Notes under the pieces: model-generated
What the model was told of the DNA's origin: nothing
Database searches by the model: none
Seen by the model: only the letters and a program-made list of their open reading frames with translations
In this document: positions 5,293-19,672 of the stretch, piece by piece
Layout: each line of letters starts with the position of its first letter
Numbering within the stretch: position 1 is the first letter of the stretch
Origin: Octopus vulgaris
Taxonomy: Eukaryota
Assembly: GCA_951406725.2 (NCBI GenBank)
Contig: OX597815.1
Location: forward strand, 187,302,001 to 187,366,000
Direction: 5' to 3'
DNA: 64,000 nt
Translations under genes and position numbers: made by a program

Positions 5293-6231
5293 ACATGTCT
5301 AAATGTTTAACTTTTTCACAATGTTCTCGAAATGAAAGATCATCTACCATTTATTAGCATGGTTGGGGGAATAGATTCTGATGCTCTGAACTTCAAAATA
5401 AAAATCCAAATGCTATGATTTTTTTTTTTTTAAAACAAAATGCTCAACATTTTATGGTAGAGGTGGGGTTTCAAAACCTACTCTTAAACAAATGTGCAAT
5501 AATTTTTCCTCTTTGAAAGTTTTTTTTAAAAAAATTATCATTGTGGTTTGCAATTAAGGTGTGATATTTTGTTCTTCATTTTCTGTGATGCTAAATTAAA
5601 TTCAATAGTCCATTTAGTCCAGCATTTAATGATTCAGTGTCAATTCTCTATAGAGAATCATTTAGAATTTTTCCTGTTATTGCATCTCTGTTATGTTCTT
5701 GTTTAAAATGGAATATAAATTTGGGAAATGTTACTGTTTACTATACAATGACCACTTTGGCAAATATATTATTCACTTGACCTAGGGACCTTCCACCAGT
5801 AATTATTAACTGCCACTTTTGCTGTATTTTTCAGTAAATTTTTAACTTTCAGTTTCAACAATTTTTTATTTATTTAATAAAAATTCCTTTTAATTTTGTT
5901 TTTATGTGAAGATGTGAAATCCAATAACTTTTTTAACCATTTAATTACTTGCTCATACTAATTGTACAGCATAAAAAGCAAAACTATGATATAACCTGAT
6001 TGATATTATTCATTATCAACATGAAATCAGCAGGTATGATGAAAAAAACTCCTCACTTTACATTTAACCTATTATAATACAATTTGAAGTAATGCACTGG
6101 TGCCATATAAAAGGTACCTGTGCAGGTGTCACATAAAAATTACCTGTGCAGGTGTCACATAAAAATTACCTGTGCAGGTGTCACATAAAATGCTTCTGTG
6201 ATGTTGCCACATAGAATGCACCCAGTTCTCT

Positions 6232-7017
6232 CTGTGTACTGGGTGCATTCTATATGGCAACACCTGTATACTGGGTGCATTCTATGTGGAAACACCTGTG
6301 TATTGGGTGCATTCTATGTGGCAACACCTGTGCACTGGGTGCATTCTATGTGGCAACACCTGTGTACTGGGTGCATTCTATGTGGCTATACCTGTATACT
6401 GGGTGCATTCTATGTGGCAACACCTGTGTACTGGGCACATTCTATGTGGCAACACCTGTGTATTGGGTGCATTCTATGTGGCAACACCTGTGTACTGGGT
6501 GCATTCTATGTGGCAACACCTGTGTACTGGGTGCATTCTATGTGGCATCACCTGTGTAGTGGGTGCATTCTATGTGGCATCACCTGCATACTGGGTGCAT
6601 TCAATGTTGCAACACCTGTGCACTCAGTGCATTCTATGTGACATCACCTGTGTAGTGGGTGCATTCTATGTGGCATCACCTGCATACTGGGTGCATTCAA
6701 TGTTGCAACACCTGTGCACTCAGTGCATTCTATGTGACATCACCTGTGTAGTGGGTGCATTCTACATGGCATCACCTGCATACTGGGTACATTCAATGTT
6801 GCAACACCTTTGCACTCAGTGCATTCTATGTGGCATCACCTGTGTAGTGGGTGCATTCTATGTGGAATCACCTGCATACTGGGTGCATTCTATGTGGTGA
6901 CACCTGTGTACTGGGTGCATTCTATGTGGCATCACCTGTGTAGTGGGTGCATTCTATGTGGCATCACCTGCATACTGGGTGCATTCTATGTGGTGACACC
7001 TGTGTACTGGGTGCATT
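6232..7017. repeat. 32-bp minisatellite, ~24.5 copies, with 96-bp higher-order units
   Basis: Unit cacctgtgtactgggtgcattctatgtggcaa, period 32 (cacc at 6261, 6293...). Trimeric variants recur at 6549, 6645 and 6741. Confidence 0.95.
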
Positions 7018-7033
7018 TAGTCTTTTTTGCCAA

Positions 7034-7172
7034 TAAAGTGGTTGGCATTAGGTAGGGCATCCAGCTACTGGAGCCTTGCTACAACAGACAATTAGAGCCT
7101 GGTGCAGCTCTCCAGTTTGCCAGCTCCTGTGAAACCACCAACTTTTGCCAGCATGGAAAATGATGATGAGGA
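7034..7172 (+). mobile_element. 3' end of the family C SINE hosting the 32-bp array
   Basis: agtggttggcattaggtagggcatccagc...gccagcatggaaaa(tga)n. The 5' repeat units of the same element lie at ~6095-6227. Confidence 0.75.
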
Positions 7173-7263
7173 GGATTTCGTTTTGTTGCTTAGAAAGGGA
7201 AAATATTGAAGTAGGAAAAGATCAGCATCATGAAATGAAACTAAAATAATGTTCAGTGAGAGT

Positions 7264-7700
7264 CACGGGTGTGGCTTTGTGATCAGAAGTTTGCTTTTCA
7301 ACCACATGGTTCTGAGTTCAGTCCTACTGTGTAGCACCTTGAGCAAGTGTCTTCTGCTATAACCTTGGGCCCACCAAAGCCTTGATTTTGTAGACAGAAA
7401 CTGAAAGCAGTCTGCTGCATATATACATGTGTGTGTGAGTGTATGTGTGCATGAACATGTGTATATGCATGCGTGCATGCATGTGTGTGTGTGTGTGTCT
7501 TGGTGGTCTGTTTGTCCTAACCCACCACCACTTGACAACCGATGTTAGTGTGTTTACACTTCTGTAACTTAGCAGTTCATAAAAAAAAAGGAAAAAACGA
7601 TAGAAAGTAGTGAGCTAAAAAAAAAATTGAGTTCTGTAATCGATTTGTTTGACTAAAATTCTTCAAGACGGTGCCCCAGTATGACCATACCAAGTAAAGA
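7264..7700 (+). mobile_element. SINE family A (diverged)
   Basis: gtgtggctttgtg...gagttcagtcc...ccttgagcaagtgtctt...ggtgccccagtatgacc. Confidence 0.8.
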
Positions 7701-7909
7701 ACAGTTCTTGTCTAAATTCAGCAATTAAATGAAATTATAAGAATGTTTCTCTTTGGAATTTAACGTCTATCTCGAAACTGTTTATGCATAGAAGAAACGA
7801 CCGACCTTGTTTATACAACAAGCGCCTGAGAGAATCGTGAACAACATCATTAACATTGATGAGCTGACTGAAAGGAAATTGTGTCATACGTGATATTTGT
7901 GTTAATACA

Positions 7910-8318
7910 ATGAGCATTCAAAGTACAATTTACTCTCTTGCATCATTACGATTAATTCATAATTCAGTGGTGTGCTGTAATGAACCAAAGCATTTGGCGG
8001 ATCACCATGTACATTTAGATGGGAAAGTTTGGCTGTGTTTTGTATGGCAGGCATTTCCGAAGTATTAGACAATATTTTTTCTTCTCTGAGTTTCATTCAT
8101 GTCCCATTGCCGTGTAGAGCTTATGTATTCACAGGCAGCAGTTGACTGCAAACAGTATATTGTTATGGAGCAGGTTGGTGTTACCAGAGAAGCGATTAGC
8201 TAAGTGGTATATGACTATTTTAGAGATGTGTGTGCTACATGATATATCAACCATCCTACGCAAATTTGCAGAAACTGTATAATCATAGAAATTTGACAAA
8301 CTGAAGTTCATGCATTAT
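7910..8318 (+). pseudogene. Merlin / IS1595 (ISXO2-like) DDE transposase relic, N-terminal half
   Basis: Manual translation across frameshifts gives LRLIHNSVVCCNEP...LDGKVWLC...RSIRQYFFFSEFH...YFRDVCAT*YINHPTQICRNCIIIEI/DKLKFMH. This matches the Merlin pattern DGxxWRC...SIR.GSFF...FCRDVC...IGGPGxxVEIDESKF. Confidence 0.7.
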
Positions 8319-8860: not shown

Positions 8861-8947
<87 letters not shown>

Positions 8948-8948
8948 A

Positions 8949-9156
8949 CTTTATTAAAAAGCAGCAAAAATATCACGAAAACTGTTACTCAGAGTTTCAC
9001 ATTACTGTTCGTCGAACAAAACTGTCCAACAAACGGGAACATGAAACTCTGAGTAACAGATTTTGTAATTTTTTTGCTACTTTTCAATAAAGCATATTAC
9101 TCTACCTCTGGTATTCGAGTACCATTTTTTCCATATTTATGTGCTTACTCTGGTAT
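8949..9156. mobile_element. Hairpin + tail element in microsatellite (Penelope-like inverted pLTR relic), family H1
   Basis: Inverted repeat 8949-9092 (ctttattaaaaagcagc...gctacttttcaataaag) followed by the unpaired tail catattactctacc.ctggtatt.gagtac. It is flanked by (TG)n/(TA)n, and a sister copy lies at 14231-14397. Confidence 0.75.
9017..9065 (+). ncRNA. Decayed minimal type I hammerhead ribozyme motif (mirror copy on the - strand at ~8977-9017)
   Basis: ctgt-[CCAACAA; other arm TCGACGA]-acg GGAA cat-GAAA-ctctgag-TA-acag. This gives stem I ctgt/acag, stem II with a GNRA loop, a palindromic stem III actc.gagt and a GUA cleavage triplet. The core differs from CUGANGA by U4C plus CpG decay. 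Confidence 0.55.
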
Positions 9157-9739
9157 ACACACACACACATATATATATATATACATATATATATTTTATA
9201 TTATTATTTAATTGAACACCAAGCATCCATTTCCAAGTAAGTTTATCTTAACCTTTTTGATGTGACTCTACTCTATACTGTTTTCTCTCCCATCCTTCTC
9301 TAATTCCTTTTTAATCCACTTCACCGTTTCCTATTTCTCTCTCTCTCTCTCCCTTGCCATCTTACTCTTTTTCTCTCTTTCATTGCTCACACATAACCAT
9401 TGTCCATCTTTCTTTTCCTGCATGGATTTTCTAGGACTGGATGTCTTCTGTCTTTTCTCTCTTCAAAAAAAATATTTCTTCCAGCGTTCACTATCTTTCT
9501 CCTCTTTGTTTGTTTTCGTTCAGTTTCCTTGTATGTTTCCACTGTCCTGTTTTTGTTCCCAACTTTGACACTCCATAAAATCAAAAATTTATTTTGGAAG
9601 TCATGGGAGCAACTGTCTTCAAACTGTCCACTACTTTATTTGGCATTGTTTTCATTAAGGTATGGGCAGCCTTCCTATGACATGAAAATCTTCAGTTACC
9701 AAGTAACGATTTAGCAGATAATTTCCTTTCACTCTGTAA

Positions 9740-13258: not shown

Positions 13259-13934
13259 GTAGCTCTCCAATTAAACGAAAATTCTAGAACATGTTCGTAT
13301 CAACAGATTTCGTCATTTCAAAGAAAGAGAGGCCATAATTCCAGCCTAAAAGTATGTCAATGAAATTAGTCACGAAGCAATTTACAATAAATGATTATTC
13401 TTATTTTATTGACAAACAAAGTGATGCAGAAAAAAATTTCAAGGTAAGGAAGTTATTTGTATAATTTTGTTCGCCAATTCTTTTATATATTTCAATGAAT
13501 CAAGCACGACTTCATGATATTTTTCCCAATTTTTACCCATCATGGTTGCTGCAGTCGAATATTAATCTTTTGTTTGTCCAAACCATTTTTATAAGTTTGT
13601 CCTAAACGTCCTTGCTTGTTTTCATACATTTTAATTAGTGCTGTCTTCATCTATTTTTCTTTCTGAGTAATAATATAAAGTTTTCTTTTTCTTAGTCCCA
13701 AGTAATTCCGGCGGTTGAAAAAGAATTAGCAATGGTTATAATATATGATGCATGAAGGTGAGGGAAATATGTCAGGGTTTCTCTCATATTCTCAAGATAA
13801 CCTGCAAAAATTCAATCCAACTGTAATCACCACCAAATTATGTTTTTTAGCATTTAACCCAGTGGTTCCAACCTGTAGTCTGCAAAATTAGTACTGGGGG
13901 TCCGTGAACTAAATTCAAAATAATATACATATAT

Positions 13935-14184
13935 ATATTAAGGGAAAACCAAGAAGAAAATGGAGAATAAGATGGATATAATTATTTATTTATTTGCGTC
14001 AACATGCAAATAAATCAGTAATTACTTCCAGTTATTATTCTCCATTTTCTTCTTGTTTTTCCCTCAATATTAAGAATTTCAATAATCCTAAACATATACA
14101 AATGACTTTACCATTATATGATACGGATGAACCAGTGGAATACTTTGGATTATATAATCCCTAATGAGGACTTCCTCGAATTAA

Positions 14185-14230: not shown

Positions 14231-14231
<1 letters not shown>

Positions 14232-14397
14232 TTTATTTAAAGCAGCAGAAAATTCAACAAAACCTGTTACTCTGAGTTTCCCGTTGCCACTCAGAGTAAT
14301 AGGTTTTGTTGAATTTTCTGCTGCTTTAAATAAAGCATATTACTCTACCACTGGTATTTGAGTACTCTTTTTTACACATTTATGTGTTTACTCCGTA
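14231..14397. mobile_element. Hairpin + tail element, family H1 second copy
   Basis: Near-perfect ~47-bp arms at 14231-14335 with the same tail as 9093-9156. The minus strand keeps g-GCAA-cgg-GAAA-ctcagag-TA-acag. Confidence 0.8.
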
Positions 14398-14861: not shown

Positions 14862-15500
14862 AGAGATTTGTAACATGTATAAGTATACGCACGGCCTGTA
14901 CCTGACCAACCACCCCCAATTCAACTACTTCCAAGGCAGAAATACGAGAGGATGAAAGGCAAAGTCAACCTCGGCGGAATTTGAACGCCGCTACATTCTG
15001 AGTTCAAATTCCGCCAAGGTCGACTTTGCCTTTCATCCTTTCGGGGTCGATTGAATAAGTACCAGTTACGCACTGGGGGCGATATAATCGACTTAATTCG
15101 TTTGTCTGTCCTTGTTTGTCTCCTCTGTGGGCAGTAAAGAAATAAGAAATACGTGAGGACACAGCCTGAAATTGGAAAGATCACACTGCAGGCTCAACAT
15201 TAGAAGCTGCTTTTTCGCAAAGCGTGTGACCACCATCCGGAACAGTCTGCCAAATAGTGTGGTTGCAGCTCCCTCAGTCAATGCCTTCAAGAACAGGCTT
15301 GACGCATACTGGAGGGAGCTTCCTGCAAAATTTGACCGTTCTGTCGAAGTGTTGTCCCACATGTGACAGATTAATTGTACTAGTGGAAAAGGACCTGTGA
15401 ACAAGCTCGTAGGTGCTTCAACACGGAAACCATCCAGTATGCAGTAACATGTTTTGAACAGATTCGGTCCAGTTGACATTTGACTGTTCCATGTCCGCAA
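14862..15500 (+). mobile_element. CR1-clade LINE 3' end, interrupted by a SINE
   Basis: MYKYTHGLY...FQGRNTRG | SINE | T*GHSLKLERSHCRLNIRSCFFAKRVTTIRNSLPNSVVAAPSVNAFKNRLDAYW, the canonical CR1 ORF2 terminus. Confidence 0.9.
14950..15144 (+). mobile_element. 5'-truncated family B SINE with a 5' inverted duplication
   Basis: 14950-14986 is the reverse complement of 15002-15038. TSD agaaatacgagagga (14938-14952) / agaaatacgtgagga (15145-15159). Confidence 0.85.
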
Positions 15501-16341: not shown

Positions 16342-17644
16342 GGATCTTTTCTATTCTGAAGCCAGTTTTTTCAAATTTTTCCTACTGAACCAAACAATTT
16401 GAAACTTCGTATACTGGTAGAATGTGTCAAAAGTAAACTTAATTGTAAACCAGAATGAAAACGGAATTGTAACTTCTAAGTTTAACGTTGTTTAATAATT
16501 AGAATTTTAACCAATGATATTCCGTCATTCGGCGTTATTTTATTTACTCCGTCTCGACCACCAATTTCGTGACGTATTAAACATCTTAAATGTAAACATT
16601 TCGTTTCTAAGCTAATGCGTTTCATTTCACTTATTGTATTTATTTGTGCAAAAGGCAAGAAATTTAGGCGAAGTTTCGCTTGTCGTAGCACAAGTTTTCC
16701 GTCGATTTCCGTAAAAAACTTTTATTTTTTTACATAAGTAATGAGAGCGAAAGAGACTAAGAGGAAGCGATTTTATGACGAGGGAAGTTTGTCTTTGAAG
16801 TTACCGTCTAGGGGAAGCATTGATGTACATGTGTGTGTGTGTGTGTTTGATGGGGTGTGGGAGACAGTATGTTGTGTAAGTGAAGTGCTTCTGTTAGTGT
16901 GTGTGAAGAGACAGAGAGAGTAATGTGTGAAAGAGAGAGATAACTGAAATTTTTTACTCGGTGTATGTGTATATGTATGTCTGCATGTATGTGTGTGTAT
17001 GTATGTGTAAGTATGTGTGTGTGTGTGTATGTATGTATGGCCGATTCATACATACATACATAGATACATACACACACACACATACATGCAGACATACATA
17101 TACACATACACCGAGTAAAAAATTTCAGTTATCTCTCTCTTTCACACATTACTCTCTCTGTCTCTTCACACACACTAACAGCCTCTTAGTCTCTTTCGCT
17201 CTTATTACTTATGTAAAAAAATAAAAGTTTTTTACGGAAATCGACGGAAAACTTGTGCTACGACAACGCCGAAATTTAATATTAAAAAAGCAAAGAGCTG
17301 GCAGAAACGTTAGCACGCCGGGCGAAATGCGTAGCCGTATTTCGTCTGCCGTTACGTTCTGTATTTGTTTACAGTTTTCCGAACGTTAGGACGTCACAAA
17401 AGCGCTTTCTACGTCACACTAATAGAATGCAGTCAAGTTTTAAGTTTTACACATGAAAACAAACAATCTGATTGGTTAAAATTCGCAGTTTTAATCTACG
17501 ATTAAAGTCATAAAATAGATTTTTCTCAAATAAACTAGTTCCAACCTGTGTCTTGTTTTGCTAGACTCTATCAGCATACGAAGTTTCAGATTATTTAGTT
17601 AAGTAGAAAGATCTGTGGTCCTGGCTTCAGAATAGAAAAGATCC
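16342..17644. mobile_element. TIR DNA transposon, non-autonomous (Merlin- or MULE-like)
   Basis: Perfect 24-bp TIR ggatcttttctattctgaagccag (16342-16365 and 17621-17644) that extends imperfectly to ~80 bp, with an exact 8-bp TSD aaaatata. Confidence 0.9.
16680..17266. repeat. ~590-bp foldback palindrome with a one-sided ~127-bp bulge
   Basis: 16680-16763 pairs with 17182-17266, and 16891-~17040 pairs with ~17047-17181. Segment 16764-16890 is present only in the left arm. Confidence 0.95.
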
Positions 17645-17670
17645 AAAATATATTCAGGTTACACTGCGAC

Positions 17671-18098
17671 ATGGTCTCGTCACACACGAGTGTGCCGCGG
17701 AAGACTTAGCATCGTCTCGTGACACACGAGTGTGCCGCGGAAGACCTAGCATCTTCTCGCTGCACTCCAGGGTGCCGCGGCAGACCTAGCATCTTCTCGC
17801 GGCACTCCAGTGTGCTGCGGCAGACTTAGCATCTTCTCGTGGCACACGAGTGTACCGCGGCAAACCTAGCATCGTCTCGTGACACACCAGTGTGCCGCGG
17901 AAGACCTAGCATCGTCTCGTGATACACCAGTATGCCGCGGAAGACTTAGCATCGTCTCGTGACGCACGAGTGTGCCGCAGAAGACCTAGCATCTTCTCGC
18001 GGCACTCCAGTGTGCCGCAGAAGACATAGCATCTTCTCGTGACACACGAGTGTGCCGCAGAAGACCTAGCATCGTCTCGTGGCACACATGTGTGCCGC
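17671..18098. repeat. 40-bp CpG-rich minisatellite, ~10.7 copies
   Basis: Unit atcgtctcgtgacacacgagtgtgccgcggaagacctagc; period 40 (17701, 17741, 17781...). Confidence 0.95.
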
Positions 18099-19556: not shown

Positions 19557-19672
19557 TAAAGAAATAAAAAAAGTTTAACGGAAATTGCCGAGCAGATAGT
19601 TTCACTTTTCTGGTCTCAGAAAAGTGAAACTATTTGTTCAGCAATTTCCGTAATACTTTTTTTATTTCTTTA
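19557..19672. repeat. Hairpin element in microsatellite, family H3
   Basis: taaagaaataaaaaaagtttaacggaaattgccg...ttcacttttctg|gtct|cagaaaagtgaaac...gcaatttccgtaatacttt...atttcttta. Single-arm relatives lie at ~10505-10580 and ~18985-19075. Confidence 0.8.

Follow-up and report, generated by a model that had tools for sequence, protein, structure and literature searches.

A decayed head-to-head insertion in an Octopus vulgaris microsatellite, probably derived from a Hydra-clade Penelope-like element with a minimal hammerhead motif

Penelope-like elements (PLEs) of the Hydra clade are characterized, in the available text of Craig et al. (2021; PMC8557442), by RWK and DKT motifs, a CxCx5C linker, CxxC and CxH motifs, the absence of CCHH, TA-repeat targets and a 3′ hammerhead. 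The minimal hammerheads of PLEs are mostly single truncated motifs, and pairs on opposite strands occur sometimes, 100-700 bp apart (Cervera and de la Pena, 2014; PMC4209133). Inverted head-to-head pLTRs with palindromic junctions and one tail are also known (PMC3846280, PMC8557442). Concerning the insertion reaction, the PLE of the green anole nicks and extends both strands in vitro, starts reverse transcription (RT) at two internal sites bounding the tail and inserts without hammerhead cleavage (Frangieh et al., 2024; PMC11167929), while in D. virilis the transcription of Penelope begins inside the pLTR (PMC2377424).

Here, we analyzed a stretch of 64,000 nucleotides of Octopus vulgaris (contig OX597815.1, positions 187,302,001 to 187,366,000), hereafter the window. 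It harbors an imperfect palindrome at 8949-9092, which is complementary at 114 of its 144 positions and whose RNA fold has a z of -10.5, equal stability being reached in 0 of 200 shuffles. An earlier note on this DNA, made from the letters alone, had pointed to a hairpin lying between microsatellites with an AATAAA and a shared tail, and these features are real; the tail at 9093-9156 is common to the window copy and to a sister copy (Table 1). The locus is very probably a decayed insertion of a Hydra-clade PLE, in which a 5′-truncated 3′ end and a head-to-head inverted copy of it lie in a TA/CA microsatellite. The palindrome likely formed in a single insertion event. Its right arm is identical at 127 of 139 positions to an arm of an older subfamily and at 116 of 138 to a young arm, and no ORF remnant of the element is present in the window itself. 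The sister copy is flanked by TA repeats on either side and its forward arm is identical at 103 of 105 positions to an arm of an intermediate subfamily.

Table 1. Features of the palindromic locus and of the sister copy (positions in the window).
Feature	Position	Strand	Remarks
CA/TA/TG microsatellite	8861..8948	none	Upstream flank, insertion target; basis: sequence
Left arm	8949..9018	-	Inverted, tail-less, 5′-truncated copy of the PLE 3′ end, with hammerhead remnant
Left-arm core	9015-9009	-	UCGACGA (C3U, U4C)
Left-arm stem II	9008-8999	-	ACA-GUAA-UGU
Left-arm GAAA	8998-8995	-	
Left-arm stem III	8994-8988	-	Identical to that of the right arm
Left-arm GUA	ends at 8986	-	
Head-to-head junction	9015..9018		3-4 letters common to both arms (microhomology), by comparison with long copies of the same subfamily
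Right arm	9015..9092	+	Forward, 5′-truncated copy of the PLE 3′ end
Right-arm hammerhead remnant	9018-9063	+	Predicted cut site after 9055
Right-arm stem I	9022-9025	+	CUGU; pairing partner ACAG beyond GUA
Right-arm core	9026-9032	+	CCAACAA
Right-arm stem II with loop		+	ACG-GGAA-CAU
Right-arm GAAA	9043-9046	+	
Right-arm stem III		+	CUC-U-GAG
Right-arm GUA	9053-9055	+	
AATAAA	9086-9091	+	In the right arm
PLE tail	9093..9156	+	~64 nt; 10-nt deletion relative to other copies
CA/TA microsatellite	9157..9196	none	Downstream flank
Sister copy, inverted arm	14231..14288	-	Younger subfamily; begins at the GCAA loop; no catalytic core
Sister copy, forward arm and tail	14289..14393	+	Begins inside stem III; no core or GAAA

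The earlier note had read both arms, as well as the sister copy, as type I hammerheads. For the arms this holds as far as they are remnants of a family with that topology, but their cores are broken. Specifically, the right arm has lost G5 and G8, while the left arm carries C3U and U4C and, although its core, GAAA and stem III can be recognized, the 5′ strand of its stem I is clipped by the junction to 3 letters. For the sister copy the reading fails, since neither of its arms includes the core. The core that had been reconstructed from the two arms was confirmed in the genome, which contains 186 exact 42-nt matches with CCGACGA (control, 0). The aca/tgt pair of one stem II, which could pass for a compensation, corresponds to two CpG-type decays, with no evidence of selection. 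A relaxed hammerhead descriptor, loosened only after the cores had been seen, gave exactly two matches in the window, namely both arms (mean of 0.07 in 30 shuffles). Against Rfam, neither the window nor an intact young element gave a hammerhead match at E ≤ 10, and the matches returned were only sub-threshold, microsatellite-driven ones to miRNAs.

The note had also proposed a ribozyme on each strand, and in its strongest form the palindrome would be a functional two-strand device, each transcript cleaving itself at its own GUA. Both arms of the window do retain GAAA, stem III and GUA, and an isolated young arm forms stem I (pairing probability of 0.83) and a 2-bp stem II (0.78) in an RNA fold, without stem III, as is expected for a motif that needs a dimer. 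However, the hammerhead helices reach at most 0.04 in the isolated window arms folded singly and 0.0 inside the whole window palindrome, as they do in two less decayed palindromes. Together with the lesions of the two cores, the coreless sister copy and the 38 loci with junctions inside the motif, which show no pile-up at the cut site, this makes such a device most improbable, and the opposite-strand motifs are better described as a by-product of inversion. A precedent is offered by Penelope-13_HM, which also has a 5′ inverted copy and for which the motif is listed on each strand (PMC8557442). An intact core together with foldable helices is absent from the window copy, and by its sequence this copy is decayed, with a broken hammerhead motif, and likely inert today.

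Genome searches showed that the window arm is the terminal 150 nt (3′ end) of an autonomous PLE with RT and endonuclease, present in thousands of copies. The PLE origin proposed in the note is upheld, as are the palindromic stem III, the inverted pLTR with a tail and the CpG decay, but the palindrome is very probably derived, by truncation, from the end of an autonomous 3.4-kb element rather than from a tiny stand-alone, non-autonomous or retrozyme-like family. The genome also holds intact relatives, which comprise a pLTR, an ORF for a 711-aa TERT-like RT and endonuclease, a 3′ UTR of ~1.1 kb, the arm and the tail, with a repeat unit of ~3,364 bp. When the right arm was used as query, 9 of the 29 other copies continued far upstream in shared sequence and three of the copies reached the endonuclease C-terminus, ~1.25 kb off. 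Conversely, a search with the C-terminal piece of the endonuclease (8,047 candidates, 150 scored) placed the arm within 1.5 kb of that piece in 23 of the 30 returned loci. A frame of 720-760 codons with the arm ~1.05-1.1 kb downstream was present in 8/8 loci chosen for long frames, several of which are arranged as pLTR-ORF-pLTR or with a long inverted copy. In full elements the upstream pLTR continues through its tail into the 5′ UTR, and ~210 nt separate stem I from the first ATG downstream. Partial tandems, the inverted 5′ copy, the optional tail and the pLTRs all agree with a PLE. The link to an RT and endonuclease ORF that the note had called for was found, the family also keeps the core and GAAA, and none of the contrary outcomes that it had named was seen at the sequence level.

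The genome search for the element yielded 4,021 candidates, of which 40 were scored. Thousands of copies, a short palindrome and a TA context would also suit a MITE-like DNA transposon with terminal inverted repeats and a TA target, and the 3′ flanks are indeed TA-type in ~90 of 100 young arms (4 run into the element's own 5′ UTR and 4 were left unread). Nevertheless, the tail is asymmetric and sits on one arm, the 30 aligned copies have arm and tail in common around a centre of variable length, and an RT-encoding element has the arm as its 3′ end; the linkage to the RT-endonuclease ORF refutes a MITE, whose probability we regard as negligible.

For the particular older subfamily to which the window copy belongs, no master that is both intact and full-length was found in the genome; U4C cores were seen only downstream of broken RT-endonuclease remnants (L073, L244). 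The region C6:122.577-122.581 Mb was considered as a full-length tandem of the old subfamily and rejected, being a local duplication across an assembly gap without an ORF. At this locus (L242, C6:122.5755-122.5815 Mb) a stretch of 2.1 kb is repeated at 97.7% identity across an N gap, probably an assembly duplication.

The 711-aa protein has more than 1,000 relatives and bears the RWK, DKT and YRDD motifs and a CxCx5Cx5C linker. Its endonuclease end contains CxxC-E, N-R-E and CRH as well as a degenerate GIY-YIG pair that lacks the CCHH cysteines, and Y..G, R, E and N are kept across 118 aligned proteins. Searches of Pfam and of PDB sequences, with the 711-aa ORF or with a 118-row profile, gave nothing useful, and because Pfam gave no match the endonuclease assignment rests on motifs. 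A structure model built from the protein and 117 relatives reached a pLDDT of 93.7, and its best fold match is TERT (E-value = 1e-9). Judging from the motifs and from a by-eye comparison with the published alignment, the element is an EN+ PLE of the Hydra clade. It shares with that clade RWK, DKT, the CxCx5C linker, CxxC and CxH around E/N, the lack of CCHH, the TA targets and the 3′ hammerhead (PMC8557442). The octopus unit of ~3.36 kb, with its 1.1-kb 3′ UTR, is longer than the clade members, which are generally <3 kb, a tendency rather than a criterion; furthermore, U4C is found in the older octopus subfamilies, whereas each of the 26 Hydra rows in File S2 begins with ctga (PMC8557442). The nearest motif is that of the coral element Hydra-2_aMil, which agrees in stem I (ctgt/acag), in stem III (actc-n-gagt) and in the cut site (PMC8557442). 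An identity with Hydra-1_Obim, an octopus family in that supplement, was rejected, as its listed motif differs and its protein is by eye only a homologue (PMC8557442). In relation to the minimal PLE hammerheads, the octopus motif is likewise of type I, and its helix III is so small and palindromic that a dimer is predicted to be required, but its opposite-strand pairs are typically <60 bp apart, it has no G10.1-C11.1 pair, and a U4C core is not mentioned in the available part of that article (PMC4209133). Among the literature searched, only Craig et al. was found to bear on a description of this family, which may already be in Repbase or Dfam.

A very young subfamily of the element has many near-identical open frames of 710 aa, with pLTRs or inverted copies 98-99.8% identical. 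Examples (L094-L101) are located at C24:6.27 Mb, C1:63-66 Mb, C1:172 and 194 Mb, C3:146.6 Mb and C11:31.9 Mb. This Hydra-clade subfamily has likely been active recently or is still active. In one of these examples (L101) an 817-codon endonuclease-RT LINE frame, at 5582-8032 on the plus strand, adjoins a full-length PLE copy. Another locus (L062) holds at 1957-2703 on the minus strand a 248-codon remnant with a CxxxxCxxC linker, which presumably resembles a Neptune-type PLE and had no match in Pfam.

Short palindromes like that of the window are numerous, and two strict patterns retrieved 683 young ones and 283 with the old core in both arms. By eye, ~25 junction forms were distinguished in the first 50 of the 683 young palindromes, three of them making up ~23 of these 50, and short self-complementary words are hot spots for the junctions. 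Identical junction forms are found again in the 283 old-core loci, both arms of which have that core. The first 100 exact young arms of contig C1 include 27 head-to-head pairs, of which 25 have exactly one tail, and one junction form can carry the tail on either side. Since the junctions vary and one tail is found in 25 of the 27 pairs, head-to-head palindromes are probably formed afresh with every insertion. The green anole element Poseidon PAc (PMC11167929) and the Penelopes of rotifers (Arkhipova et al., 2013; PMC3846280) belong to a different clade. The same head-to-head inverted pLTRs, palindromic junctions and single tail are described for them, along with an optional tail between two RT starts and AT-rich targets, but the octopus tail is ~67 nt long compared with 30-40 nt in those elements (PMC11167929, PMC3846280).

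It could be argued instead that the short palindrome moves as a non-autonomous unit in its own right, namely as a PLE-dependent or retrozyme-like mini-element copied whole by the PLE protein. The abundance of the short palindromes, the dominance of three junction forms and the occurrence of tandem or nested palindromes at some loci (L011, L026, L033) would fit such a unit. Rotifer pLTR sequences can act in trans (PMC3846280), and animal non-LTR retrozymes, which like the octopus palindromes are non-coding with a type I hammerhead, derive from pLTRs (10.64898/2026.07.22.740005). However, retrozymes are head-to-tail tandem units with an intact motif each, whereas the octopus copies are head-to-head pairs with broken motifs (10.64898/2026.07.22.740005), and the tandem arrays typical of retrozymes were not seen. 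Against the mini-element also stand the many junction forms, recurring per subfamily with that subfamily's core in both arms, and the tail on either side of one form; additionally, its transcript would fold into one long hairpin. We therefore consider this reading improbable and retain that of palindromes formed anew at insertion.

The 5′ ends of the arms are informative about how the palindromes were made. In the first 100 exact young arms of contig C1, the arm begins 0-11 nt upstream of stem I in 37, 12-59 nt upstream in 7 and further upstream in 56; an earlier, palindrome-enriched sample was left out of these counts, and in it truncation points >150 nt were unreliable because of UTR variants and were pooled as long. 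Two older sets showed a stop just upstream of stem I in ~20/30 and 19/30 arms (a script had counted 21/30 and 20/30, and one false call was removed from each on inspection). In many arms, including solo arms joined directly to TA repeats, the first letter is the A of CCATTC or CTATTC or lies right behind it. Junctions within the hammerhead motif are far rarer, being found in only 38 loci. The self-cleaved RNA was rejected as the template, given the missing pile-up at the predicted cut site among these 38 loci, and so was splicing to an acceptor immediately before stem I, of the kind known in D. virilis, as AG is present there only in younger subfamilies. The sequence pattern suggests that the stop upstream of stem I corresponds to a fixed RNA 5′ end. 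For Poseidon PAc and the rotifer Penelopes, the available text of those studies reports no such accumulation of 5′ ends close to the upstream side of the hammerhead (PMC11167929, PMC3846280).

A mechanism can be proposed, which as a whole we judge about equally apt to be right or wrong. The element protein would nick both strands of the TA repeat, and two cDNAs would be primed at two internal start sites, one at the tail end and one just after AATAAAG. If priming took place on the RNA within its 5′ pLTR, both cDNAs would terminate a few bases upstream of stem I, and this fixed site resembles an RNA 5′ end (the A of the initiator-like CCATTC). Their ends would anneal by 3-4 letters of microhomology and give a short palindrome with one tail. 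The hammerhead would be inherited as pLTR cargo, for which cutting is predicted only in dimers or when a protein assists, and its canonical form would apparently not be needed for spread. The upstream pLTRs of full-length copies end 65 to ~970 nt upstream of stem I and not at the proposed start, so a linear start-site model does not explain them. Moreover, in young subfamilies stem I is predicted to be extended and to have its 5′ end at this same stop, which makes RT stalling or fold-back a live alternative. It is a tentative and rather unlikely idea that the palindromes record a "strong-stop" route of PLEs, in which two cDNAs primed on opposite strands reach the 5′ terminus of the RNA, 9 nt upstream of the hammerhead, and become joined head-to-head, and that the spread of U4C is a natural experiment. 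If true, tail/no-tail priming in the 5′ pLTR would have seeded thousands of near-perfect hairpins of 150-170 bp, the lineage would have spread through several U4C subfamilies before it went back to the canonical core, and the purpose of the PLE hammerhead could be tested within one family.

Concerning the history of the motif, the youngest subfamily has the canonical core CUGAUGA (3,184 exact 42-nt matches; control, 0) and a stem II of 2 bp closed by an A-A mismatch; stem II measures only 2-3 bp throughout the family. A core-free pattern excluding the young form gave 2,855 matches, and in the first 100 listed, read by eye, position 4 is C in 93 and U in 7, while G5 has changed to A in 5, as is expected if the masters carried a CpG there. 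The U4C core pointed out in the earlier note is a trait of the window copy's subfamily but not of the family; older subfamilies amplified with a U4C core and the youngest has the canonical one. The family consensus conforms to CUGANGA...GAAA...UH in the young subfamily, and the older ones deviate from it by U4C. The family carries a type I minimal hammerhead motif by its sequence, for which self-cutting is predicted. In 27 distinct rows, many of them chosen by the motif, 96% of the cells of the helices are paired, stem III is invariant, and the three two-sided changes are all CpG-type, so that covariation support for the helices within the genome is essentially absent. The literature searched describes neither the U4C history nor the pile-up at the stop site, though some supplements may list U4C variants, and both details look unreported.

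The motif might no longer be a ribozyme and be kept as an RNA structure or sequence bound by the RT, the return to CUGAUGA being a CpG decay in the master. This is a real possibility, if on the doubtful side, and it is compatible with the preferred reading of a decayed PLE insertion, as both can hold. U4C masters were amplified to thousands of copies (2,855 matches), both C-to-T steps fall at CpG, and position 11.1 drifts among U, G, C and A without compensation. In seven old copies aligned against the young master, the tail is as conserved as the motif or more so (identities of 0.87-0.96 and 0.78-0.87, respectively), and insertion of the anole PLE without HHR cleavage points the same way (PMC11167929). 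On the other hand, G5, A6, G8, A9, GAAA, stem III and GUA are fixed across subfamilies, although the upstream UTR of the same seven copies is only 0.53-0.80 identical, and the motif matches that of the coral Hydra-2_aMil. Furthermore, U4C lowers activity in vitro yet allows viroid infectivity (PMC3088659), and a 10.1-11.1 mismatch is common in the listed Hydra-clade motifs (PMC8557442).

The locus itself is an ordinary fossil of a known element type. Its family is young and abundant, with 3,184 exact copies of the motif and many open full-length frames, and is part of a PLE clade that has been little studied and escapes both Pfam and Rfam. It provides a handle on the formation of PLE inverted repeats, through a sharp and countable stop site, and on whether the hammerhead matters, through subfamilies that differ at U4. 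The hairpins, where transcribed, would supply double-stranded RNA.

Other repeats of the window were also recorded. A hairpin of ~90 nt at 14950-15038 lies within a common interspersed repeat, related direct copies of which are present in many of the examined loci, and it looks like a fold-back form of another repeat family. Short palindromes at 19575-19654 and 13925-14070 lie in an AT-rich or microsatellite context and are unrelated in sequence to the PLE arm. An inverted repeat at 16891-17181 has 135-nt arms that are 93% complementary and is partly microsatellite. Tandem arrays are located at 6099-7017 (26/32-bp units), 17670-18098 (40-bp units) and 1951-2595 (214-bp units). Finally, a 152-codon frame at 1250-1705 on the plus strand resembles what we take to be the C-terminal part of a LINE reverse transcriptase.
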